Below are positions 32,898 through 45,349 of a DNA stretch of 64,000 nucleotides, piece after piece (position 1 is the stretch's first letter; each line of letters begins with the position of its first letter). The DNA lies in NCBI GenBank assembly GCA_001805445.1, contig MHGF01000038.1, positions 4,912 to 68,911 of the forward strand, written 5' to 3'. The notes under the pieces were generated by a model that saw only the letters and a list, made by a program, of their open reading frames with translations, searched no databases and had not been told where the DNA came from. Made by a program: the position numbers and the translations under genes. The DNA is from Omnitrophica WOR_2 bacterium GWF2_43_52 (lineage in GTDB: Bacteria > Omnitrophota > Gorgyraeia > Gygaellales > UBA12090).

Positions 32898-33137
32898 TTA
32901 CTCTAAAATATCTCCAACGATAGAGTCTATAATGACTCCTGCTTTTTTTAAAAACTCAATCCCCTTATCTAAATCCTGTTCTTTGCCCTCCAACTCCAAT
33001 ACTAATTCTCCAACAGTTTCAGTAACCTTTGCCCGGCGGATATTAGGCAAAATGTTATACTTTTTTGCCATCTGAAAGGTAAGCGGCTCTTTGACCAAAT
33101 CTTGCGGAAAGGTAAGTTTTATCACTCGTTTTGCCAT
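32898..33137 (-). CDS. NIL-domain protein (stand-alone)
   Basis: 79 aa. It resembles the C-terminal NIL domain of MetN and NIL-ferredoxin proteins linked to sulfur amino-acid metabolism. Confidence 0.5.
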   Translation of the reverse strand: MAKRVIKLTFPQDLVKEPLTFQMAKKYNILPNIRRAKVTETVGELVLELEGKEQDLDKGIEFLKKAGVIIDSIVGDILE

Positions 33138-33254: not shown

Positions 33255-34079
33255 TTATTTTACGGAACAATCACGATTTGCCTTTATACTACAGAATTCC
33301 TGATAATCAATCAACTTGGTAATTTTGGGATGTGTAGAGCACACCAGGCAATCCTTATCTTTAGGGACCTTTACGGCCCTAAAAGTTGAATCTAAGGCGT
33401 TGAATATGAGAAGCCTTCCTGCCAAAAGATTTCCTGCCTGCAGGATAAATTTCAATACCTCATTTGCCTGTAAAACCCCTAATACCCCTGCGACCGCTCC
33501 TAAAATTCCGCCCTCCTGACAACTGGGCACTGCCCCCGGAGGTGGAGGCTCAGGGAATAAACACCTATAGCACGGGCCTACTCCCGGGACAATAGTCATA
33601 ATCTGCCCGTCAAAACGGAATATCCCGGCGTGCACCAAAGGTTTTTTGGCAATCACGCAGGCGTCATTTACCAGGTAGCGGGTAGGAAAATTATCCGAGC
33701 CATCCACCACAATATCATAATCCTTGATAATATCCAAAATATTGCTTGAATCTAACCGCACATGGTGGGTTATCACGTGTACATCCGGATTCAGCGCTTT
33801 AAGCCGCGCTTTCCCGGATTCAACTTTTGGGGTTCCTACACTCTCGGTAGTATGCAGGATTTGCCTTTGCAGGTTATTTAATTCTACATTATCAGAATCA
33901 ACGATACCAATCGTCCCCACCCCCGCGGCCGCCAGATAAAAATCACAGGGCGCGCCAAGCCCCCCGGTACCAATTACCAAAACCTTTGCTTTTAAAATCT
34001 TATCCTGCCCCTTGCCTCCGACATTCGGCAGTATTATCTGCCGGGAATATCTTTCTATTTGCTCATTAGTTAAAGCCAT
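33255..34079 (-). CDS. ThiF/MoeB/MoeZ-family E1-like adenylyltransferase for a sulfur-carrier protein (no rhodanese domain)
   Basis: [63 protein letters not shown] is the E1 nucleotide-binding motif. CYRC...CLVC form the zinc knuckle. Its start overlaps the end of the carrier gene. Confidence 0.85.
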
Positions 34080-34450
34080 ATCTGGAACTCCTTTGACTCG
34101 TTCGTCACTACGTTTCTCACTCGCTCAGGATGGTTCAACTCAACAATGGTGAGCGAGCGCAAGCGAGTCGAACTACCCCCTGCAATCGCGGGAATTATTG
34201 ATACTTCATTTCCCTCAGAAAGTGCCGTCTCGTCCTGTTTCAGGAAACGAATATCCTCATCGTTCACATAGAAATTAATAAATCTTCTGATTTTTCCGCT
34301 TTCATCCAAAAGCCTTTCCTTAATTCCCGGAAATTGCTTTTCCAAATCCACAATTAATTCCCTGATATTTCCTGCCTCTGCCGTTACCTCTTGCTTATTC
34401 TGAGCAATCTTCTGCAGTGGAGCCGGAATCCTCACCTTTACTTTAGCCAT
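34070..34450 (-). CDS. CysO/MoaD-like ubiquitin-like sulfur-carrier protein with a 34-aa C-terminal extension after the GG
   Basis: [14 protein letters not shown]...[11 protein letters not shown] closely parallels M. tuberculosis CysO (RFVNIYVNDEDVRF...SVTILPAVAGG). The ORF then continues [34 protein letters not shown] before the stop. Confidence 0.75.
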
Positions 34451-34594
34451 TTCACCCTCCTGTTAACTATCAATAAGTGTGGGTCAATAGTCTATAGCCG
34501 ATAGTCTATCCTTTAGTTTTTCTATTGACCATCGACTATCGACCTTCAAATATCATCTACAACGTATAATTTATAACTCATAACTTCTCGCTTC

Positions 34595-35869
34595 TTATAT
34601 ATAATACTCAATCACCTTGTTCTGCGCTATTTTCTGCTTCTCGCCATTTTTGAAATGCTCCTCAAAGCCGGCTAAATTCGGTTTAATCTTAATCAACTTA
34701 GGCAATGACTTTGTAACCACCTCCTGAGTTTTTAAGCCATTTCCGGTAATGCAGATTACAATTGATTCATCAGAGGGTATCACCTTACTTTCAATAAGCT
34801 TTTTGGTTACCGCCAAGGTCACCCCTCCCGCAGTTTCCGTAAATATCCCTTCGGCCTTTGCCAATAATTTTATCGCCTCAATGATTTCCTCATCTGACGC
34901 CTCTTCTGCCCAACCTTTGGATTTACGCACCGTATCCACCGCGTAATAGCCATCCGCGGGATTACCGATAGCCAAGGATTTGGCTATGGTTTTTGGTTTC
35001 ACCGGACGGATAACATCGGATTTCTCTTTTATGGCAGTTACAATTGGCGCGCAGCCTTGGCCTTGGGCGCAATATACCTTGGTAGCAACCTTGTCCACAA
35101 ACCCTAACTTCTCCAATTCCTTAAAGCTTTTCCATATCTTGGTAATCAATGAACCGCCTGCTGACGGCACCACAATATGTTTGGGCAATTTCCAGTCAAG
35201 CTGTTCGGCAATTTCATACCCCATTGATTTTGAACCTTCCGCGTAATAAGGGCGGATATTAATATTCACAAATGCCCAGCGGTATTTAGAAGCGATTTCT
35301 GAACAAAGCCGATTTACCTCATCATAATTTCCTTCAATGCCGATAAGATAAGGATTATAAATAAGCGAGGCCACTACCTTTCCCGCTTCAAGGTCAGCAG
35401 GGATAAAGATAAATGCCCGCAGGCCACACAATGCCGCCTGGGCAGAAACCGAATTTGCCAGATTTCCCGTTGACGCGCAAGCCACCGTATCAAAACCGAA
35501 TTCTTTGGCCTTGGAAACAGCAACCGAAACTACTCTATCCTTAAATGACAGCGTAGGATGATTCACCGAATCGTCTTTAAGATAAAGTTCTTTTACACCC
35601 AAAACCTTCGCTAAATTATTCGCTTTTATTAACGGGGTAAATCCTGATGCTATACCGACGGCAGGTTCTTTATCTATCGGTAAAAGCTCTTTATAACGCC
35701 ACATCGTCTTAGGACGGTCTTTTAATGCCTCTTTGGTGAAGCTCTTTTTAATCTTTGAATAATCATAATCGACCTCCAAAGAGCCAAAACAATATTCGCA
35801 GACGAATAAGACATCTTTAGGATACTCACGTCCGCATTCCCGACATCTTAAGCCTAATACATAGCTCAT
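34595..35869 (-). CDS. Threonine-synthase-family PLP enzyme with N-terminal zinc ribbon (ThrC, or a MetM-like O-phosphohomoserine-dependent homocysteine synthase)
   Basis: CRECGREY...CEYC zinc ribbon and SFKDRV PLP-lysine motif. It lies adjacent to the CysO-like carrier and E1, as in carrier-protein-dependent Met biosynthesis. Confidence 0.75.
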   Translation of the reverse strand: MSYVLGLRCRECGREYPKDVLFVCEYCFGSLEVDYDYSKIKKSFTKEALKDRPKTMWRYKELLPIDKEPAVGIASGFTPLIKANNLAKVLGVKELYLKDDSVNHPTLSFKDRVVSVAVSKAKEFGFDTVACASTGNLANSVSAQAALCGLRAFIFIPADLEAGKVVASLIYNPYLIGIEGNYDEVNRLCSEIASKYRWAFVNINIRPYYAEGSKSMGYEIAEQLDWKLPKHIVVPSAGGSLITKIWKSFKELEKLGFVDKVATKVYCAQGQGCAPIVTAIKEKSDVIRPVKPKTIAKSLAIGNPADGYYAVDTVRKSKGWAEEASDEEIIEAIKLLAKAEGIFTETAGGVTLAVTKKLIESKVIPSDESIVICITGNGLKTQEVVTKSLPKLIKIKPNLAGFEEHFKNGEKQKIAQNKVIEYYI

Positions 35870-35966: not shown

Positions 35967-38390
35967 TTAACTATCAACCCATTTCTTCACTAATACCTTA
36001 TAATACCCATCAACTTTTTTTATCTCTAAAATCTCCTGGCCGTCGTTTTTTAAACTCACAGGGACATTTTGAATCGGCTCTCCTTCATCCAGGCATATCT
36101 CGATGACGTGGCCGATTTTCACATTCTCTAAATATACCTTCGCCTGGACATAATTCATCGGGCAACGTACGCCTCTTAAATTTAACGTTACCGCGGACGC
36201 GCTTTCCTCAGCCTTTACCTGGGGTGCGGGAATTTTCGGGGTAAATTTAAAGGCGCTATCCATATTCTTATAGGCATCCTTGAGCTCACCGAGCAACACG
36301 TGCGCATAGTCGTATAATTCTTTCAAGCGCCCTTTACCGAGGCTACCAGCATTCAGTTCCCAGGCTTTTTCGGTGATATCGTTAAATACCTCCGACACAA
36401 TACCACCTGAGACAAGCCTTTCCTTAAAATAGCGTAATGCCTCTAAATCATTTTTCGGCTCTAAACCAAAGGCAACCAGCAGGCTCCGGCTTGAAAAGCT
36501 TAAAACCCTATACAATTCCTTGGTTATCAGGCCTAAAGACTCCGAGTCAAAATACTCCTTGGCTGCTTTGAGAGAATACCCCGCATCTGCTAAATCCGCT
36601 TCCATCATATCTAAGACGCCAGCCCCGCACTCACCGGGGCCAATACCTGCCAAAGAAAACTCTTCTTCTTTACCCCAGTCAAAATAATACTCTTTATTTT
36701 CCGCGTATGAGGGGCACTTCTCATACTTTTTAGCTAAATCTGCCGCCTCCTGGTAGCCGCGACGCTCTAAATAAGCGTAAAAATCTTCATTGCTATTCTT
36801 ATCGGAAATATACCCTTTCAGAAAGTCTCGCACTATATTCGGAATATCCTTTGCCGGAATAAAAGCGCATTCTTTGGCTAGCGCGGCATCATCTATCCCT
36901 ACCTTACCCCCTAAAAGCATACGGTAAAATGGTACGGAACGGTTATCAAAACGCCTGCTTGCCCCGTAAAAGCTAATCTTTCCTATCGGATGCTGGCCGC
37001 AGGAATTAGGGCAGCCGCTGATTTTAATGTTAAGTTCGGATAATTCCTTTATCCGGTTAAATCCCTCTTTATGTATCATCGCTTCAAGGGCCGCGGCAAG
37101 CCCGCGGGAATTGCAAATTCCCAAATTACAGGTTGCGGCCCCCGTGCAGGAAACAATATCTTCTATTGACTCGGCTTTGCCGGAGACTAACCCTAACTCC
37201 TTTAAACCATAATACACTTCCCCTAATTCCTCTTGGCGGATATAGGGGATAATGATATTCTGATAACTCGTGGTGCGAATCTGCCCCTTATTTAATTTTT
37301 TAAGCAAGCCGCACAATTTTTCTAAAGTATCAGAGCTTATATCTCCCAGCTCCAGGCGGATATGCGCGTAATAATACTCCGGCTGCCTGTGGCTTTGGCT
37401 ATGGCTTTGGCTATCGGAAGCCAAACCACTGCCCTCTGGCCTGTGGCTAAAAACATTTTCCGCGCGCCACTCTTTAAAGCCTTCATCATTGAACACATCT
37501 TTTTGCCCCGCGGTGCTTTTCTTTTGCAGCTCATCCGTATCAGACACAAATTCCAAAGGCTTAATGTTTTCTTGGCGCACTTGCGTTAATTCTTCTTTGT
37601 ATCTTTGCATAAACTCTTCTTTCCCAATCCGCTCAACCAAGAAGCGTAAGCGCGCCTTATGCCTGTTCTTTCTCTCTCCGTATTTATCAAACACTCTAAT
37701 GACCGCTTCGCTGACATACACACAATCGCCTACGGGGATAAACTCCTCAATGCAGAAACCGATCATGGAAGAAAAGCCCATGCCGCCTCCGGAGAAAACC
37801 TTAAAGCCGCGAGCGCCGTTCTTTTTTACCGCCACAAACCCCAAGTCGTTGATTTTTGACAAAGCGCAACATTCCGGGCAGCCGTCAAAAATAATTTTAA
37901 ACTTACGCGGCAGGTTATAATTACGCGGATTTTTCAACAAATAGCCGCTTAAGGCCGCGGAATAACTACTAGTATCAAAAACTTCCTTGGGACAAATTCC
38001 GGAAAGAGGACAATTCATTATGTTGCGTACGGTATTTCCCCCACCGCCGCGAGGGCTAAGCTCAACCTCTGCTAGTTCCCGAATCGCCTTAATCGTATCT
38101 TCTATCTTAACATTATGAATCTGTATGTCCTGGCGCGTAGTAACATGCAAATTGCCTGTGCCATATTTTCTCGCGCAATGGGCTAATTTCTCTAATTGAT
38201 GCACATATGCCTTGCCCGCGATAATGCGCACCCGTACCATAAAAAGCTTTTCTTTACGCTGCCCGTACATGCCGCGGGGGACTCTCATGGGGCGGAATTT
38301 TGCCGCGCTGATTTCGCCGGCTAAGTATCCCTGCAGGTTATTGGCGTAATGTTCCATATCGTCTATAATTTCTTGGGGTAACTTAAACAT
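35967..38390 (-). CDS. Siroheme/[4Fe-4S] nitrite-sulfite reductase-family protein fused to a C-terminal TusA-like sulfurtransferase domain
   Basis: CTGAATCNLGIC...SGCPNSCGQHPIG is the siroheme-4Fe4S cysteine cluster. C-terminal LNLRGVRCPMNYVQAKVYL gives the TusA CPxP motif. An internal low-complexity insert SDSQSHSQSH is present. Confidence 0.8.
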   Translation of the reverse strand: MFKLPQEIIDDMEHYANNLQGYLAGEISAAKFRPMRVPRGMYGQRKEKLFMVRVRIIAGKAYVHQLEKLAHCARKYGTGNLHVTTRQDIQIHNVKIEDTIKAIRELAEVELSPRGGGGNTVRNIMNCPLSGICPKEVFDTSSYSAALSGYLLKNPRNYNLPRKFKIIFDGCPECCALSKINDLGFVAVKKNGARGFKVFSGGGMGFSSMIGFCIEEFIPVGDCVYVSEAVIRVFDKYGERKNRHKARLRFLVERIGKEEFMQRYKEELTQVRQENIKPLEFVSDTDELQKKSTAGQKDVFNDEGFKEWRAENVFSHRPEGSGLASDSQSHSQSHRQPEYYYAHIRLELGDISSDTLEKLCGLLKKLNKGQIRTTSYQNIIIPYIRQEELGEVYYGLKELGLVSGKAESIEDIVSCTGAATCNLGICNSRGLAAALEAMIHKEGFNRIKELSELNIKISGCPNSCGQHPIGKISFYGASRRFDNRSVPFYRMLLGGKVGIDDAALAKECAFIPAKDIPNIVRDFLKGYISDKNSNEDFYAYLERRGYQEAADLAKKYEKCPSYAENKEYYFDWGKEEEFSLAGIGPGECGAGVLDMMEADLADAGYSLKAAKEYFDSESLGLITKELYRVLSFSSRSLLVAFGLEPKNDLEALRYFKERLVSGGIVSEVFNDITEKAWELNAGSLGKGRLKELYDYAHVLLGELKDAYKNMDSAFKFTPKIPAPQVKAEESASAVTLNLRGVRCPMNYVQAKVYLENVKIGHVIEICLDEGEPIQNVPVSLKNDGQEILEIKKVDGYYKVLVKKWVDS

Positions 38391-38515: not shown

Positions 38516-39646
38516 TTACAGCTCAAAATACTGCTGCATGCTGGCATAGCGCTCTCCGGTATCTGGTAACACAGTCACTACCGTTTTCCCTTTGCCTAAT
38601 GCTTTAGCAACTTGTAAAGCGACAAATGCCGCGGCACCGCTTGAGATACCTACAAATAATCCCTCTTCCCTCGCAAGCCTGCGGGAGGCCCTATACGCGT
38701 CATTATCAGACACCTTCACTATTTCATCGATTATTTTTAGGTTTAATATATCCGGCACAAACCCCGCTCCAATGCCTTGTATCTTATGCGGCCCAGGTTT
38801 GCCTCCGGAAAGCACAGGAGACGCCTCCGGCTCAACAGCGATAACCCTTACCTTTGGATTAATCTCCTTTAAAACCTCACCTACCCCTGTTATGGTCCCT
38901 CCGGTACCTACGCCTGCCACAAATCCATCGATTTTTTCTCCTACGGCATCAAGAATTTCCTTTGCGGTAGTCTCCCGATGAATTTTTGGATTCGCGGGAT
39001 TTTTGAACTGCTGAGGCATAAAACTGTGTGGGGTATTTTTAAGAATCTCTTCAGCCTTTTTTATTGCTCCGCTCATCCCCTCAATGCCCGGGGTAAGCAC
39101 CACCTCAGCGCCTAATGCCTTTAAAATGTAAATCCTTTCGACTGACATAGTCTCCGGCATAGTAAGCACTACATGGTAGCCTTTGACCGCGCCCACCATA
39201 GCCAAACCTATCCCGGTATTGCCTGAAGTCGGCTCAACAATCGTTGAACCCTCCTTAAGGAGCCCTTGCCTTTCCGCTTCCATAACCATTGACAGGCAAA
39301 TCCTGTCCTTAACTGAGCCGCCCGGATTAAATTGTTCTAACTTCGCATAAATAGCCGCAGAATCTTTTTCAACTATACGGTTAAACTTCACCATCGGGGT
39401 ATTACAAATAAGCTCTAAGACATTATTGGCTAATTTCGGGGACGAACCACCGCCCATAAAGAAAACCAATTCTATCCTATCGTTATCTTTTATGACACTT
39501 TTTAGAAATTCCTCACGGGCGAGTATTGTATCATTATGCTCTACCGTCACCACTTCCGGCCGGATATTTTTTTTCTTGAGTAACTCCGCGACAGAAATTC
39601 CTTCAACTAACTCTTCTTTTTTGCCATTAAGCGTTATCGTCATCAT
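38516..39646 (-). CDS. ThiS-like ubiquitin-like domain (ending GGG) fused in-frame to cysteine synthase (CysK/CysM, PLP)
   Basis: N-terminal 67 aa [23 protein letters not shown]...[14 protein letters not shown] are ThiS-like (compare B. subtilis ThiS ...IEIVHFVGGG). They run straight into NTPMVKF...[10 protein letters not shown], the cysteine synthase PLP-lysine motif. Confidence 0.8.
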
Positions 39647-39663: not shown

Positions 39664-40935
39664 TTAATGTAATGCCTTGAGCGCATCATCTATTGTGTTA
39701 ACCGTATATCCCAAGTCTTTATCTGTGTGTACCGCTGAAATAAAACATACCTCATCCGGCGCAGGCGAAAGATACACGCCTTTTGATAATACTGAATGAA
39801 AAAATGAGGCAAATTTACTTTTATCCTGAAACCCAAAATGAAACATCGGGCCAAAATGGTTTAAGCGCGCCGAAACGCCGCTCTTTCGTAGTATCTTTTC
39901 TAACTCCTTATAAAATGCCTCACTTTTCTGGTTAAGCTTTTTATAGAAGTCTTTTGCCCTAAGCATTGTAAACGTAGCAAGCCCCGCGCTTACCGCCACC
40001 GGATTTCCCGATAACGTCCCTGCCTGATACACGCTGCCTAAGGGCGCGACCATCTCCATTATTTCCTTCTTTCCGCCAAATGCGGCCAGAGGAAACCCTC
40101 CGCCGGCAATCTTGCCCAAGCAGGTCAGGTCAGGTTTAATCTTAAAAGCCTTCTGTATACCTCCAAAGCAAAAACGAAAACCGGTAATTACTTCATCAAA
40201 TATAAGCAAGGCCCCGCATTGCTTAGTTATTTTGCGCAGGCCTGCCAGAAAGCCTTTTTCTGGCAGGATCAAGCCGGTATTGGCGGCAATCGGCTCGACA
40301 ATCACACAGGCAATATCGTTATCCCGGGAAAAGGCGTCCTGAACCTGTTCTAAATTGTTATAATCAAGCTCTATTACATTTTCCTCAAGATTCTTCGGAA
40401 TGCCCGCGCTTCGTCCGCTTAAGAAAAAATCGCTATGTCCGTGATAACATTCCTTGAATTTGACGATTTTATTTTTCTTGGTATATGCCCTTGCCAAACG
40501 GATAACTGACATTGCCGCTTCTGTGCCGGAACTTACTACACGCGCCAATTCTATGGATGGAATTGCCTGAATAATACGTTTGGCAAATTCTATCTCAAGT
40601 TTCGTCGCCGCGCCATAGCTGGTGCCTTTTTCTACCGCTTTCTTAACGCAGGCAACAACTCGAGAGTTACTATGGCCCAAAAGTAACGCCCCCCAGGACA
40701 TACAATAATCTATGTAGGTTTTACCGTCTTCACCGATGAATTTTGAGCCTGAAGCTCTCTTCACAAATACAGGAGAACCACCCACCGATTTAAAAGAACG
40801 CACAGGGCTGTTGACCCCGCCGGGGATGTATTTTTGAGCCTCTGCAAACAATCGATCATTGGTGTGCCGGTATGCCGGTGTGCCGGTATGCCGGCTAAAC
40901 TGGCTGACTCGTAAACCCGCTAACTGGTTAACCAT
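39664..40935 (-). CDS. hemL: Glutamate-1-semialdehyde 2,1-aminomutase
   Basis: [13 protein letters not shown]...[15 protein letters not shown]...[16 protein letters not shown]. Start taken at MVNQ. The N-terminus carries a 16-nt x2 tandem repeat. Confidence 0.85.
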
Positions 40936-41942
40936 TTTGCCACATCCTTCGCCCAATACGTAATAATAATGTCCGCACCAGCGCGCTTAATGGAAGTCAA
41001 AATCTCTAATGCCAAATCTCTTTCAATATCTTGTGACTTGTGACTTGTGACTTGTGACTGCGAATAGCTTTTCACCATCGCATACTCACCGCTGACATTA
41101 AACGCAGCTAATGGAACGGAAAACTTCTCTTTGGCCTTAGCGATTATATCCAGATAAGAAAGCGCCGGCTTGACCATCACTATATCCGCGCCTTCCTGAA
41201 TATCCGCTTCTATTTCCCTTAAGGCCTCGTCAGAATTTCGATAGTCCATTTGATAGGACTTCCTGTCCCCAAATTTCATCATACTTCCAGCGGCTTCCCT
41301 AAAAGGCCCGTAAAATCCCGAGGCGAATTTAGCGGAATACCCCATAATCGCTGTCTCCATAAAGCCCTTTTCATCCAGAGCTTTACGGATAGCTCCCACC
41401 TGCCCATCCATCATACTGCTGGGAGCCACAATATCCGCCCCCGCCCGGGCGTGGGAAAGCGCGATTTTGACTAAAACCTTTAGGGTCGCATCATTATCCG
41501 GTATTGCATTTAGCGATGGACGATGGACGATGGACGATGGACGACAATTTTTAAGAATTCCGCAATGCCCATGGCTGGTATATTCACACAAACATACATC
41601 AGTAATTACAACAAGCTCATCCCCGAAATTTTTCTTTAATAGCGCTACTGCCTTCTGAATGACACCATCTTCCTGATAGGCGCTTACCGCCTTTTCATCT
41701 TTATTTTTGGGAATACCAAAGAGGATAATTGAATTTATGCCTACTCGCTTTGCTTCCTCCACATCCTTAAGCAATCTATCGCCAGAAAACCTGAATATCC
41801 CCGGCATAGACTGAATTGGCTGCTTTAACTGCTTACCTTCGCGGACAAAATAAGGCATCACCAAATGTGATACCTTTAGGTTGGCTTGGGCAACCAAATC
41901 CCGTAAAGCAGCATTTTTTCTTAATCTTTTTAACCTACGCAT
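40920..41942 (-). CDS. hemB: Porphobilinogen synthase (delta-aminolevulinate dehydratase)
   Basis: CLCEYTSHGHCG, GADIVAPSSMMDGQVGAIR, GDRKSYQMD, VKPALSYLD, SGEYAMVK. It contains two in-frame heptanucleotide x4 repeat insertions. Confidence 0.9.
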   Translation of the reverse strand: MRRLKRLRKNAALRDLVAQANLKVSHLVMPYFVREGKQLKQPIQSMPGIFRFSGDRLLKDVEEAKRVGINSIILFGIPKNKDEKAVSAYQEDGVIQKAVALLKKNFGDELVVITDVCLCEYTSHGHCGILKNCRPSSIVHRPSLNAIPDNDATLKVLVKIALSHARAGADIVAPSSMMDGQVGAIRKALDEKGFMETAIMGYSAKFASGFYGPFREAAGSMMKFGDRKSYQMDYRNSDEALREIEADIQEGADIVMVKPALSYLDIIAKAKEKFSVPLAAFNVSGEYAMVKSYSQSQVTSHKSQDIERDLALEILTSIKRAGADIIITYWAKDVAKWLTS

Positions 41943-42354
41943 TTTCTATAACCAATTCCTCTTCAATAATCTTGCCTTCCACAATCTTAAACGAACGCAC
42001 CTGCGGCTGTCCGGGATCAGACAAAGATACAATTATATAAGAACTCTCCGGGTAAAACGCCAGTTCAATATCTCTTTGTGACGGATAGGCTTGGCTGTCA
42101 ACGTGAGAATGATATATGGCAACCATTTCTATCGCCTGCTTACGCAGTTCTTTAAACACCGCCAACTGTTCCTTAGGGTCAATATGATAACAGAGCTTGG
42201 GGCTGTCGGAAATATTAGTTAAAGGAAATATTTTTTCAATACGCGCGGCTTTACCGGCAAGGATCCCACAGGTTTCTTTCTGCGGCTCCTTAAGGCAATA
42301 AGCAAGAAGCTCGTTATACATAGCCTTTTTTATGAAAATCTTTGACTTGCGCAT
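41935..42354 (-). CDS. JAMM/MPN+ zinc metalloprotease (Mec+/CysLP/QbsD-like isopeptidase for ubiquitin-like sulfur carriers)
   Basis: ETCGIL...YHSHVDSQAYPSQRD gives the E...HxH-x7-S-x2-D JAMM motif. Confidence 0.75.
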   Translation of the reverse strand: MRKSKIFIKKAMYNELLAYCLKEPQKETCGILAGKAARIEKIFPLTNISDSPKLCYHIDPKEQLAVFKELRKQAIEMVAIYHSHVDSQAYPSQRDIELAFYPESSYIIVSLSDPGQPQVRSFKIVEGKIIEEELVIENA

Positions 42355-42368
42355 TTTTGATTTTGAGC

Positions 42369-43124
42369 TTATTTAGTTATTCCCCATCGTTTGCGCACTG
42401 AATTTTCTATTTTTTTAAAAATAATATTATCCACAACAATAGAAATTGAGGCAATTAAAAGCATGGTTGCCAGAACATAACTCATATCCTTCTGGCCTTT
42501 TGCCCGCATAAGAATATGCCCGACACCCAAACCTGAAACTAGAATTTCAGCAGTCACCAGCCCCCGCCAAGAAAATGCCCAGGCTAAGCGTATGCCCGTA
42601 ATAATCGAAGGCACTGCCGCCGGCAATACTACCTCCCTAAATAAGGTAAGCCCTTTTATCCCGCTTATTCGCGCCTGGTTAATCAACTGCGGCGATACAA
42701 ATTTTATCCCGCTTTCGGTATTTAAGGTAATCACGATCATCGCGCTTATCTGGACGATAAAAATAACCGCCCATTCGTTCTCGCCGAAAAATAATACCGC
42801 AAACGGCGTCCATGCCGCGTGGCCCATTGACTGCAGTCCTAACAGTATACCGCTTACTCCTTCATCAAGCCACTTCAAAAGCCCCATGGCTATTCCCAAT
42901 AAAATCCCTAACGCGACAGCAAGGCTGTAGCCGACGCTGATCCTCAAAAGGCTGGTCTTTAAAGAAACGGCATATTCTCCGGACACACATCCGTGCCAGA
43001 AACTCTCGGCAATCATAAGCAAGGAGGGAAAATTCTTTTCCGAAAAAAATCCCAGCCTAAATGTTGCTTCCCAGATTGCGATCAAAAGGAACCAAAACCC
43101 CGCTCTTCGTAAGAACGTATTCAA
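42369..43124 (-). CDS. ABC transporter permease (nitrate/sulfonate/taurine NitT/TauT family)
   Basis: 251 aa, six TM helices, EAA-like loop. It overlaps the end of the upstream ATPase gene by about 68 nt. Confidence 0.7.
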   Translation of the reverse strand: MNTFLRRAGFWFLLIAIWEATFRLGFFSEKNFPSLLMIAESFWHGCVSGEYAVSLKTSLLRISVGYSLAVALGILLGIAMGLLKWLDEGVSGILLGLQSMGHAAWTPFAVLFFGENEWAVIFIVQISAMIVITLNTESGIKFVSPQLINQARISGIKGLTLFREVVLPAAVPSIITGIRLAWAFSWRGLVTAEILVSGLGVGHILMRAKGQKDMSYVLATMLLIASISIVVDNIIFKKIENSVRKRWGITK

Positions 43125-43899
43125 TATCCATCTCCTCTTTGGCTACCTTCTCAAATTCTTTCTCCAATACTATACTGATATTATCCTGCAGGAATCCAAG
43201 CTGCGGATCGGTCTCCCGCCGAGGATGAGGAAAATTTGCTCTATACTCGGCTAATACTCTCCCCGGGCGCGCTGAAAACACAAAAAGTTTATCCGCGAGG
43301 CACACTGCTTCTTCTATAGAACTGGTAACAAACAATACGGTCTTGCGCGTTTCTTTAAGTATCTGCTGTATTTCATAATGCAGCATAAAGCGGGTTTGGT
43401 CATCAACGCGGCTAAACGGCTCATCCATCAAAAGTATTTTAGGGTCCATTGCCAATGCCCGGGCAATGGCCACCCGCTGCTTCATTCCTGCCGATAACTC
43501 ATGAGGAAAGGCATTGATGAATTTTCCCAAGTGCACTTTTTTTAAGAAACTTATAGCAATGTCTTGCTTTTCCTTTTTTTTTATGGATTTAGCTTTAAGC
43601 GAAAAAATGGCATTTTCTAATACCGTCATCCATGGGAAAAGCGTCGGTTCCTGAAAAATAATCACCCTGTCCGATGAAGGCTCATACACGCATGAATCGT
43701 TGACGCACACAGTCCCCTTGTCAGGCTTGATCAGGCCCGCGATGATATTGAGGATTGTGGATTTCCCGCAGCCGGACGGCCCCACCACGCAGGCAAATTC
43801 CCCTTCTTTAACCTCAAAACTGACATCCTCTATGACGGGGATTTTACCGACGTCTTTTCGCCAGAATGAAATGCTTAAGTTTTCTACTTTTAGGCCCAT
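43057..43899 (-). CDS. ABC transporter ATP-binding protein (SsuB/TauB/CysA-like)
   Basis: GPSGCGKST Walker A, LSAGMKQRVAIARAL signature, LLMDEPFS Walker B. Confidence 0.85.
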   Translation of the reverse strand: MGLKVENLSISFWRKDVGKIPVIEDVSFEVKEGEFACVVGPSGCGKSTILNIIAGLIKPDKGTVCVNDSCVYEPSSDRVIIFQEPTLFPWMTVLENAIFSLKAKSIKKKEKQDIAISFLKKVHLGKFINAFPHELSAGMKQRVAIARALAMDPKILLMDEPFSRVDDQTRFMLHYEIQQILKETRKTVLFVTSSIEEAVCLADKLFVFSARPGRVLAEYRANFPHPRRETDPQLGFLQDNISIVLEKEFEKVAKEEMDIEYVLTKSGVLVPFDRNLGSNI

Positions 43900-43920
43900 T
43901 GTAAAAGAACACAAATTTAC

Positions 43921-44025: not shown

Positions 44026-44760
44026 CTACGTAAGCTGAAGCGCGTCATCCGAACGCACTTTCTTAAGCGGCCGGGTATGAATACCGCACTCACCGCCGCA
44101 CTTGCTGGTGCCAATCCAGCGGCCAGCGCGCTCGTTATCTTCGCTGGTAATCTTGGTGCAGGGCGCGCAGCCTAAAGAACGGTACCCTTCGGCATATAAA
44201 GAATTAACCTTAACTTGATATATCGCTAAATACTGCCAGACCTCTCTTTCTTTCCAGATAAGGATAGGATTAAGTTTCACCAATCCCTTGTCCCGCTCCT
44301 CAACCTCTTTATAATCAGTGCGAGTCCTGCCTTCGGTGCAGCGCAGCCCGGTAACCCAGCATTTGACTTTCATCTCTTCAATTGCCCGGCTGACCGGCTC
44401 AACTTTTAAAAGGTCGCAGCATTTATCAGGGTCAGTTTCATAAAGCTTATCCGCTATCTTCACATCGTTTTTAAAGATTTTAAGCTCAGGATATTTTGCT
44501 ACTTCCTCATTCATAAACTGAATAGTCTCTGCCGGTTTAAAGCGGGTAGTAACAATAAACCCGCGGATTTTCGGGCTTACCTTTTTTGCCAAATCCCAGA
44601 CCACGACTGAATCTTTACCCAAACTGTTTGCCACCACCAACCCGTCGCCGTATTTCTGATACGCCTCTTTTATCAGCTGAAGCGACCTGTCCACCTTTTC
44701 CTTAAAATTCAGCTTTTCCACCAATTCTTTCAAATCGTCTTTATTGTTCAACAGAGTCAT
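44026..44760 (-). CDS. cysH: Phosphoadenylyl-sulfate / adenylyl-sulfate reductase (CysH family, Fe-S type)
   Basis: PAPS-reductase fold with a C-terminal GGECGIHT (ECGLH-type) motif. The cysteine pairs CCDLL and GCAPC are typical of APS reductases. Confidence 0.8.
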   Translation of the reverse strand: MTLLNNKDDLKELVEKLNFKEKVDRSLQLIKEAYQKYGDGLVVANSLGKDSVVVWDLAKKVSPKIRGFIVTTRFKPAETIQFMNEEVAKYPELKIFKNDVKIADKLYETDPDKCCDLLKVEPVSRAIEEMKVKCWVTGLRCTEGRTRTDYKEVEERDKGLVKLNPILIWKEREVWQYLAIYQVKVNSLYAEGYRSLGCAPCTKITSEDNERAGRWIGTSKCGGECGIHTRPLKKVRSDDALQLT

Positions 44761-44908: not shown

Positions 44909-45349
44909 TCAAATAGAATATACTGCTTCCTTTTTCCCCGCCTTAGCCTGAACGGCTAAGTCCTCAAATGTCACCTTATCCACTATATTGGAAGTGGCCA
45001 TAGCCACCTCTTTACAGACATTCCTTAAAACGCAAAGCCCCATGCTTTTACAGCCGGAATACCTCTCCTCAACACAGGCAATCGGCTCAATCGGCCCGTC
45101 AATGAACCTGACGACCTCTCCCATCTTTATATTTTTAGGATGCCGGGATAAAAGATACCCACCGTTTATACCACGCTTACTCTCAACAAACCTTCCTTTC
45201 TTCAAATCCAGAAGCACCTGCTCTAAAAACTTCACCGGCGCATCCGCCCTTTCGGCAAGCTCGTGAATAGTCACCACTCCCTGGTTATAATGTAAGGCTA
45301 GGTCCAAGACCGCCCTTAAAGCGTAATCCCCTCTATAAGTTATTCTCAT
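44909..45349 (-). CDS. Rrf2-family transcriptional regulator (IscR/CymR-like, three conserved Cys)
   Basis: MRITYRGDYALRAVLDLA...HELAERADAPVKFLEQVLLDLKKGRFVESKRGINGGYLL, then C-x6-C-x5-C. Confidence 0.8.
   Translation of the reverse strand: MRITYRGDYALRAVLDLALHYNQGVVTIHELAERADAPVKFLEQVLLDLKKGRFVESKRGINGGYLLSRHPKNIKMGEVVRFIDGPIEPIACVEERYSGCKSMGLCVLRNVCKEVAMATSNIVDKVTFEDLAVQAKAGKKEAVYSI

Follow-up and report, generated by a model that had tools for sequence, protein, structure and literature searches.

Carrier gene and its C-terminal tail

The sequence analysed here (hereafter the window) is a 64,000-nt stretch of contig MHGF01000038.1 from Omnitrophica WOR_2 bacterium GWF2_43_52. Its subject is a sulfur-carrier gene whose open reading frame (ORF) continues beyond the Gly-Gly (GG) end of the carrier domain, together with the nucleotide element that lies under this continuation. 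The carrier ORF is located at 34070..34450 on the minus strand and encodes 126 aa, with 34 codons beyond G91-G92. Residues 1-92 (34175..34450, minus strand) form a ThiS/MoaD beta-grasp domain according to Pfam, the CysO alignment and AlphaFold2, and the 34-codon tail after GG occupies 34073..34174 (minus strand) and is closed by a TAA stop at 34070-34072. Pfam ThiS (PF02597) covers residues 6-92 with positions 1-76 of its 76 profile positions (E=1e-15) and ends at ...IIPAIAGG, and the MoaD/SAMP1-type models of NCBIfam likewise finish at residue 92. The best solved relative is CysO of Mycobacterium tuberculosis (3dwg_C; E=3.8e-18), and in the alignment with CysO that the original prediction proposed, carrier residues 4-92 run along CysO residues 3-93 through to its C-terminal GG. 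The Thermus thermophilus "MoaD related protein" (PDB 1v8c_A, 168 aa) is a structural precedent for a carrier with an extra C-terminal domain: its residues 14-91 align with carrier residues 18-96, and about 77 residues follow.

The stop codon of the carrier overlaps the start region of the next gene, which encodes an E1-like adenylyltransferase with its ATG at 34077-34079, and the two ORFs share 10 nt (ATGGCTTTAA). The end of the tail, K-E-F-Q-I-W-L, is the Shine-Dalgarno AAGGAG and start region of the E1 gene read in another frame; this Shine-Dalgarno (34088..34093, minus strand), recognised from sequence with a spacing of 8 nt to the ATG, is translated as the K-E of the tail. The original prediction of an ORF running 34 codons past ...IIPAIAGG into the E1 start is thus confirmed, with 126 aa in total, a ThiS domain ending at G91-G92 and a 10-nt overlap.

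At least 24 contigs, which make up 47 blocks of the collection, code for the same 126-aa protein; they stem from independent assemblies (ENA ERZ909578, ERZ27254845, JGI 3300025309). The genome is present in groundwater samples such as SRR2177954, and the NCBI entry of the identical protein is "hypothetical protein A2Y00_01560" of Omnitrophica WOR_2 bacterium GWF2_43_52. Because the identical ORF occurs in independent assemblies, the missing stop after GG is real and not a sequencing error; a stop directly after GG, the outcome of resequencing that would have spoken against the original prediction, appears in none of them. A 34-codon open frame is in itself unremarkable, since 16% of shuffles of the same 102 nt remain open. 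Chance openness and the fact that this is the sole 34-aa tail among about 200 relatives would suit an artefact of sequencing or assembly, or a recent stop loss in a decaying gene. However, the identical ORF recurs across samples and assemblers that are independent of each other, purifying selection on the carrier domain is strong, the intact operon shares its gene order with those of relatives, and relatives have read-through tails of 21-30 aa as well, which leaves this explanation hardly credible.

In the AlphaFold2 model, carrier residues 1-90 have a predicted local distance difference test (pLDDT) score of 75-96 per 10-residue block, mostly above 83, while residues 91-126 stay below 50 and show no secondary structure. 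The tail is therefore predicted to be disordered.

Variation of the tail among relatives

About 200 relatives were compared overall, namely the top 120 protein relatives and 76 carriers from GTDB species-representative genomes (one genome per species). The carrier domains of the 120 closest relatives are 63-100% identical, with 41 invariant columns among 26 aligned sequences, and conservation ends abruptly at GG. At least one residue follows GG in 101 of these 120. Tails of 0 aa were found in 19 of them, 1 aa in 27, 2 aa in 28, 3 aa in 12, 4 aa in 16 and 5-23 aa in 17, and 34 aa in the window alone. The 76 carriers of the GTDB scan, which come from many phyla, have tails of 0 aa (22), 1-9 aa (42), 16-20 aa (3) and 46-99 aa (9).

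In the last nine, the 46-99 aa after GG are a complete fused NIL domain, in Planctomycetia, Omnitrophota, Desulfuromonadales and others. These NIL-fused carriers are L017, L018, L019, L026, L027 and L033 (Planctomycetia/Omnitrophota) and L031, L038 and L060 (Desulfuromonadales, other Deltaproteobacteria), the NIL domain being about 80 aa. The tail of the window was considered as a decayed NIL domain, and this was rejected, since a hidden Markov model built from 57 NIL sequences scores the tail at 0.0 bits and shuffles at up to 6.2 bits. Another variant was seen in an Omnitrophota carrier (L030, around 4952), whose tail is SDARRFCAPAIAGGKD; it has the C-terminal PAIAGG motif twice in tandem and thereby two possible GG cleavage sites.

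The tail varies even between very similar carriers. For example, L002 and L003 have carriers 95% identical to that of the window, with 12 tail codons and a stop as codon 13. Stops in close relatives cut the tail at codons 6-23, and in relatives that carry the nucleotide element described below the tail stops at codons 7, 11, 13 and 18-19. The spacer between GG and the E1 gene is 95 nt in the window, 52 nt in L002 and L003, 6-29 nt in more distant Omnitrophota and 6-62 nt in relatives overall. A protein-database search with a concatenated 42-aa tail query gave no candidates. From the above, with 0-4 aa after GG in most of the roughly 200 relatives, the tail is not conserved as a peptide, which settles the question of its conservation that the original prediction had raised.

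A conserved nucleotide element under the tail

What the original prediction overlooked is the element under the tail: the tail-coding DNA itself is conserved and structured. In the order of translation, the element consists of block A, hairpin H1, block B, block B', block A' and the Shine-Dalgarno, and fills the approximately 95 nt between the GG codons and the E1 start. All of its parts were read on the minus strand. Block A (AGTTCGACTC; GGTTCGACTC in relatives) lies at 34165..34174 and is nearly invariant in 12 loci. It is followed by a remnant of H1, GCTTGCGC (GC-ttgc-GC; 34157..34164), which in relatives is a hairpin of 6-7 bp. Block B, TCGCTCACCATT (34145..34156), is likewise nearly invariant and is the 5' arm of an inner stem, P2, pairing with 34119-34129 in the minimum free energy (MFE) fold. 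Its complementary 3' arm is block B', GAACCATCCTGAGCGAG (34120..34136), which was seen as inverted repeat I1 and is identical at 17 of 17 positions to locus L102. Block A', CGAGTCAAA (34092..34100), is complementary to block A (GACTCG), as seen from the duplex energy and MFE folds, and abuts the Shine-Dalgarno of the E1 gene; A and A' together make the outer stem, P1. Across loci A' takes the form CGAGTC[G]AA, and B' is present in the long forms of the element, with homologous segments also in L093, L096 and L098.

The conservation of these blocks stands out against the divergence of the carrier genes. Between the window and L004, only a fraction of 0.32-0.48 of the carrier third codon positions is identical, while the spacer blocks GTTCGACTC and CTCGCTCACCATTGTTGA agree at 9/10 and 18/18 positions, respectively. 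A metagenome scan anchored on IIPAIAGG[GS]xT provided five further loci, in which the final 38 carrier residues show only about 75% identity, and L099-L101 were added through protein look-ups; for L093-L098 the search pattern partly fixed block A and left block B unconstrained. Compared with the window, blocks A and B together are identical at 19-21 of 22 positions in five loci and at 17 of 22 in L101, with a carrier third-position identity of 0.26-0.42. Binomial P values for this identity range from 1e-6 to 1e-10 in the five loci; that of L101 is 8e-4.

The reading frame is not what is kept. In the group of L093, L096 and L097 the element is 1 nt shorter, so that block B falls in another frame and a stop follows after 10 codons, and yet block B is retained. 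In L101 a stop codon lies inside the H1 loop, and H1 and block B are conserved behind it.

The part of the element that distinguishes long from short forms was at first read as a 42-nt insertion specific to the window. This was rejected, as homologous segments exist in L093, L096, L098 and L102; for the same reason the short forms of the element probably arose by deletion from an ancestral long form.

Covariation in hairpin H1 and folding of the element

H1 occurs with the stems GCCGCC/GGCGGC, AACCGCC/GGCGGTT, AATCGC/GCGATT and AACTGC/GCAGTT. In alignment A5, 95.9% of its cells are paired and both-sided changes are found in 4 of 7 pairs, whereas slid controls reach at most 55%. Further compensated variants are AGCTGCC/GGCAGTT in L006 and ACGACCC/GGGTCGT in L102; both were read directly, and alignment A7 misaligns the long-looped H1 of L102. 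In the frame of the tail the compensatory changes are non-synonymous, giving QPPLAA, QPPSAV, QSLLAI and QLPSAV. Since these changes alter the peptide, and since block B is kept in other frames and after a stop, the constraint acts on the nucleic acid and not on the peptide.

A functional peptide, serving docking, targeting or as an autoinhibitory pro-peptide, would turn this around and make the nucleotide conservation a reflection of selection on the peptide. GST-, SLTI- and NHP(E/K)R motifs do occur both in tails of the carrier type studied here, called MetO-type below (window, L098), and in tails of the other carrier of the operon (P0196/L102, P0121-125); several indels between the window, L004, L095 and L098 keep the tail frame, and L096 shows two synonymous changes in its S-T codons. 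We nevertheless hold such a peptide to be quite improbable, given the stops at codons 7, 11, 13 and 18-19 in element-bearing relatives, the different frame of block B in L093, L096 and L097, the H1 and block B kept after the stop in L101, and an H1 that is 96% paired through non-synonymous changes, besides tails of 0-4 aa in most relatives and the predicted disorder. The suggestion of the original prediction that the tail has a function of its own such as targeting is accordingly not borne out, the peptide being unconserved, interrupted by early stops, shifted in frame among relatives and predicted to be disordered.

The duplex of A and A' has an energy of -10.0 kcal/mol in the window, -12.5 in L006 and -10.4 in L098. 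In L102 and L098 the A/A' stem is the closing helix of the MFE fold and encloses the inner hairpins, and the fold of the window forms the B/B' stem. For five long forms, RNAalifold proposed another long stem, in which a single pair is compensated; this result was not relied on.

Distribution of the element

A covariance model of the 5' module (R1) was run against the window and 97 loci, 1.3 Mb in all, on both strands; the model keeps only 2 of the 7 H1 pairs, as the short forms turn stem columns into insertions, and is essentially a sequence model. It gave 13 matches, all at carrier-GG junctions. Twelve of them lie between carrier and E1. The remaining one lies between ThiS2, a second carrier domain of these operons, and a CysM-like enzyme in L006, directly after the GG of ThiS2 and before the start of the enzyme (42 bits, E=1e-9). 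Block A is also found at the ThiS2-to-CysM junction in L006 and L102. In L006, A' (GAGTCGAA) is complementary to block A over 8 nt without a mismatch, and L102, another organism, has a complete long form at this junction, with 17 nt identical to window positions 34120-34136. ThiS2 homologues have variable tails as well, many of them starting with (G)ST..., such as STQLPSAVSLTVVESKER and STRLRQSQ.... The new part of this analysis is a conserved, covarying nucleotide element that is translated as a tail and is common to two carrier junctions.

No second copy of the element was found in the 64-kb window. A dispersed repeat, of the repetitive extragenic palindrome (REP) or miniature inverted-repeat transposable element (MITE) kind, was rejected on the single copy in the window and the restriction of all copies in 1.3 Mb to carrier-GG junctions. 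The main alternative for the element is a selfish or neutral hairpin insertion, copied between carrier 3' ends by gene conversion or targeted insertion, devoid of function and tolerated only through trimming by the JAMM peptidase of the operon; in that case, too, the tail would be incidental and cut off. Its presence at two non-homologous junctions (carrier-to-E1 and ThiS2-to-CysM), its patchy occurrence within Omnitrophota with frequent deletion derivatives, and internal insertions (P0126) fit such an origin. On the other hand, the 1.3-Mb search gave no dispersed copies and only GG junctions, blocks A and B are nearly invariant across lineages with saturated synonymous sites, and the covariation of H1 implies a long-term structural constraint. 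On balance we judge a neutral insertion unlikely.

Rfam 15 gave no match in the window at gathering thresholds, and the region 34030-34230 gave only chance hairpins (E >=0.35). The likeness of GGTTCGACTC to a T-loop and the CACCA at the end of block B suggested a tRNA-like element, which was rejected: neither ARAGORN nor Rfam gave a match, and the geometry of the stems is wrong for it. No intrinsic terminator was found in the tail on the minus strand.

Operon context

The genes around the carrier all lie on the minus strand and make up one sulfur-assimilation cluster. It contains an Rrf2 regulator (44909-45349), a 3'-phosphoadenosine-5'-phosphosulfate (PAPS) reductase (44026-44760) and an ABC transporter (42369-43914). 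Next comes a JAMM/MPN+ metallopeptidase at 41935..42354 (Prok-JAB, desampylase-like; PF14464 E=3.5e-22, NCBIfam desampylase 81.5 bits), in which the JAMM motif E...HxHx7SxxD is intact (E27, H82-S-H84, S92, D95). HemB (ALAD) at 40920-41942 and a HemL-like class-III aminotransferase at 39664-40956 follow, and then a ThiS domain (...FFMGGG) fused in frame to a CysK/CysM-like pyridoxal 5'-phosphate (PLP) enzyme at 38516..39646 (Pfam ThiS 4-67, PALP 78-362). The sulfite/nitrite reductase hemoprotein at 35967..38390 carries a C-terminal TusA (Pfam NIR_SIR, NIR_SIR_ferr and TusA). At 34595..35869, next to the carrier on its upstream side, lies the gene of a ThrC-like PLP enzyme, whose N-terminus has a Cys-rich segment (CxxC...CxxC); the enzyme matches Pfam PALP and the threonine synthase model of NCBIfam, and its hits to threonine synthases in the PDB reach 1e-55. 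Downstream of the carrier are the E1-like adenylyltransferase (33255..34079; ThiF/MoeB family, 274 aa, without rhodanese; Pfam ThiF E=1.9e-83, NCBIfam MoeB and UbaA-like) and a stand-alone NIL-domain protein of 79 aa (32898..33137; Pfam NIL E=1.7e-16).

This gene order recurs in other Omnitrophota (L006-L008), the JAMM gene included. The layout corresponds to class 4e among the operons described by Iyer, Burroughs and Aravind 2006 (PMC1779556), in which ThiS/MoaD and JAB stand with a rhodanese-less E1, SirA/TusA, sulfite reductase, PAPS reductase and a transporter.

Several features of the cluster were seen in addition. The hemB and class-III aminotransferase genes (39664-41942) stand between the JAMM gene and the ThiS-CysM fusion in the window and likewise in L006 and L008, and may supply tetrapyrrole (siroheme) for the sulfite reductase. 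In L008 (7410-8694) the place of the large fusion of sulfite reductase and TusA is taken by a separate 78-aa TusA gene and a shorter sulfite-reductase-like protein that has ferredoxin-type domains, so the sulfide-supplying module of the operon is interchangeable. The 144-nt intergenic region between the ThrC-like gene and the carrier (34451-34594) contains GATAGTCTAT/ATCGACTATCG repeats, inverted at 34499-34509 and 34531-34541 and with a direct copy besides; judged from the sequence, these might act as an operator, with the Rrf2 regulator (44909-45349) as one candidate to bind there, or belong to an internal promoter of the carrier, E1 and NIL genes. Finally, the best NCBIfam scores of carrier, E1 and JAMM are to the archaeal SAMP1, UbaA and desampylase models, all below the curated cut-offs, and the trio may have a side role in protein conjugation of the sampylation type.

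A probable MetO-type carrier by context

In most of 80 species-level loci, the ThrC-like gene is directly upstream of the carrier, about 1.5 kb before GG, and this synteny spans many phyla, including cyanobacteria, Nitrospinota, Verrucomicrobiota and Poribacteria. In many phyla the carrier is followed immediately by the NIL gene or fused to NIL, with E1 in between only in some lineages. In our literature searches, stand-alone NIL proteins were nowhere described as partners of a MetM/MetO-type pair.

In the parts of the GapMind 2026 preprint that summarise Hasebe et al. 2024, MetO is the carrier, Mec the hydrolase required for MetO maturation and MoeZ the E1. MetM is described there as a ThrC homologue, "often misannotated" as threonine synthase, that converts O-phosphohomoserine to homocysteine. 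For one ThrC/MetO-like pair from cyanobacteria, identities of 51.6% to MetM and 47% to MetO of S. albulus are reported (PMC12172450). As the ThrC-like synteny is shared and the cyanobacterial ThrC/MetO-like pairs are described as MetM/MetO homologues, the carrier appears to be of the MetO type. Judged by synteny, it most likely serves homocysteine synthesis from O-phosphohomoserine, and the ThrC-like gene probably encodes a MetM-type homocysteine synthase rather than a threonine synthase.

The term "CysO-like" of the original prediction thus stands for the sequence family, with 3dwg_C as the best solved relative, and falls for the genomic partner, which is the ThrC-like enzyme directly upstream. 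The CysM-type partner expected of a CysO is not the neighbour of this carrier, as the CysK/M-like enzyme lies 4 kb upstream and has a ThiS of its own. The label should better read CysO-family by sequence, MetO-type by context. The second ThiS domain, which is fused to the CysM-like enzyme, most likely serves cysteine synthesis. Its junction in the window is GGG|SSPKLANN (around 39440-39454), and the pair in relatives is either fused directly (GGG|MPFSDRI..., at the enzyme's own Met, or GGG|SPFSDRI...), split into two genes (L006) or separated by the element. The fused ThiS2-CysM would have to be cleaved after GG in order to act as a carrier.

Proposed processing and role of the element

Taken together, we consider it rather likely that the 126-aa protein is a pro-form of the carrier, that its tail is the in-frame translation of a conserved structured element, and that the JAMM peptidase removes the tail. 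No stop happens to interrupt the element here, and the ribosome would read through it and terminate on the E1 start codon. E1 enzymes adenylate only a free C-terminal glycine, as is established for ThiS/MoaD/ubiquitin-type proteins, and for that reason the residues after GG need to be removed. The JAMM/Mec-type metallopeptidase of the operon would cut off the 34 residues before E1 adenylates Gly92, and we infer this enzyme to be the most likely agent of tail removal. As for the pro-form regulated at the processing step that the original prediction had offered, the pro-form agrees with an intact-motif JAMM in the operon and with the precedents of QbsE/QbsD, CxnE/CxnF, DrMoaD-MoaE/DRJAMM and MetO/Mec, while the cleavage itself is what we infer from them; regulation at that step is not supported.

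By analogy with Mec+ and HcyD, the JAMM enzyme would be expected to be required in any case, for setting the amino acid free from its adduct with the carrier, and it would also free the carrier from the ThiS-CysM fusion. Such a clean-up would relax selection on the position of the carrier stop, so that the stop drifts and the junction tolerates insertions; drifting stops, fusions and the nucleotide element would therefore come to lie at exactly the GG junction. A JAMM gene is present in the locus of 12 of 16 carriers with tails of at least 3 aa and of 7 of 21 with shorter ones (Fisher p=0.02, with no phylogenetic correction).

The GG end might also be made without JAMM, by another protease or co-translationally, through ribosome stalling or mRNA cleavage at the hairpin after the GG codons. 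Tails of 1-4 aa in loci that have no JAMM within 10 kb, and a structured element that begins at the GG codons, could be explained in this way. The hairpin is weak in the window, however, where H1 is reduced to GC..GC, and the operon does have a JAMM, an enzyme shown or proposed for the same task in homologous systems. To our knowledge there is no precedent for GG maturation by co-translational means or hairpin cleavage, and we regard a JAMM-free route as very improbable.

For the element, block A' abuts the Shine-Dalgarno of the next gene with the 3' arm of the outer stem, and the 5' arm lies in the last translated codons. Because of this position our guess is that the element would control translational coupling or mRNA processing at the junction from the carrier to the next gene. 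A more specific proposal is a new junction-specific cis-acting RNA of about 55-125 nt, consisting of the outer stem P1 (A/A'), the covarying H1 and the inner stem P2 (B/B'), which would occur at two operon junctions and set the ratio of carrier to enzyme expression via translational coupling or transcript processing, the tails being a by-product neutralised by JAMM. We put this forward tentatively, as a possibility that we ourselves consider doubtful.

Several observations weigh against the reading of a JAMM-trimmed pro-form with a structured element under its tail. The association between JAMM and tail length is weak and ignores phylogeny, and tails of 1-4 residues are also found in loci without JAMM within 10 kb. 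The tails of 21-34 codons (window, L004, L005, L098) are all open to the E1 start, and the peptide motifs GST..., SLTI... and NHPER recur in tails of both carrier types; there may be a constraint at the level of peptide or read-through in the sub-clade of the window, L004, L005 and L098. As to structure, the short forms keep A and B without B' and A', and pairing alone leaves the conservation of A and B unexplained; P1 and P2 are nearly invariant, with support from covariation for H1 only, and the folding z-scores of the whole element are modest (+0.5 to -2.4 across the folded loci), too weak to count alone. The assignment to MetO is based on synteny and on a chain of published identities via cyanobacterial homologues.

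These results affect the annotation of such operons. In sulfur-carrier operons that contain a JAMM, the annotated C-terminus of ThiS/MoaD is unreliable, as GG may be followed by nothing, a few residues, a 34-residue read-through or a whole domain, and pipelines that demand a terminal GG miss or mislabel real carriers. The trio of ThrC-like enzyme, carrier and NIL is conserved across many uncultured phyla, and the probable MetM-type role of its ThrC-like member, in place of threonine synthesis, bears on metabolic reconstructions of Omnitrophota and other candidate phyla. The junction would be a clear case of a "clean-up" protease relaxing stop-codon selection, with fusions, splits and inserted elements gathering at one precise site. 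Should the element prove functional, a new RNA motif would be at hand that reaches into the final sense codons of a gene, and it would offer a testable coupling of a stoichiometric carrier to its catalytic partners.

Comparison with known systems

Intercistronic stem-loops and REP-type elements also place a hairpin between co-transcribed genes, where it could plausibly contribute to differential mRNA stability or translation. The element of the window differs from them in that it has no Rfam match, is undispersed (GG junctions only in 1.3 Mb), has its start at the final sense codons and in many cases is translated.

Among the carrier systems, that of MetO, MetM, Mec and MoeZ in Streptomyces albulus is similar, as far as the preprint summary describes it, in having the carrier gene beside a ThrC homologue together with a JAMM-type hydrolase and an E1, an order that is also cyanobacterial. 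The window departs from it with an E1 that lacks rhodanese, a TusA fused to the sulfite reductase instead, and a NIL gene as an extra conserved partner. The tail of the window is far longer than any that we know of for MetO. No S-adenosylmethionine (SAM) riboswitch was found in the window with Rfam.

The CysO-CysM-Mec+ system of M. tuberculosis provides the closest solved structure and likewise includes a JAMM peptidase and an E1. However, CysO ends at GG and pairs with CysM, while the carrier of the window adjoins a ThrC-like enzyme and the CysM-like enzyme has its own ThiS. The HcyS-HcyD-HcyF-MetY-Sir system of Wolinella succinogenes (class 4e, PMC1779556) shares the PAPS reductase, ABC transporter, sulfite reductase, SirA/TusA, rhodanese-less E1, JAMM and ThiS/MoaD carrier. 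Its acceptor enzyme is the O-acetylhomoserine sulfhydrylase MetY and not a ThrC homologue, and the extension in the window amounts to 34 residues. In the 2011 work of Krishnamoorthy and Begley, HcyS is reportedly made with one extra C-terminal residue, which the JAMM enzyme removes.

In biosynthesis of thioquinolobactin, QbsE carries CF after GG, which the JAMM protein QbsD may remove, and in that of chuangxinmycin, CxnE carries the decapeptide SEAARAEESR after GG, for which removal by CxnF was proposed (PMC5925218). These carriers belong to secondary-metabolite clusters and have tails of 2 and 10 residues, and no conserved nucleotide element was reported under them. DRJAMM was reported to cleave the Deinococcus DrMoaD-MoaE fusion, and MoaX of M. 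tuberculosis is active only after cleavage (PMC8832034, PMC4326299). MoaD-MoaE fusions parallel the ThiS-CysM fusion of the window and the carrier-NIL fusions of its relatives, but there the extension is a folded partner enzyme, whereas the tail of the window is an unconserved peptide that is predicted to be disordered.

Eukaryotic ubiquitin-like precursors (ubiquitin fusions, NEDD8, SUMO, Atg8) also have variable extensions after GG or G, which are removed by proteases before activation by E1. The proteases there are mostly of the cysteine type, and the extensions are not translated intergenic RNA elements. In summary, pro-form carriers are already known from QbsE, CxnE and MetO, and the 34-residue unconserved tail of the window is an extreme member of this group.

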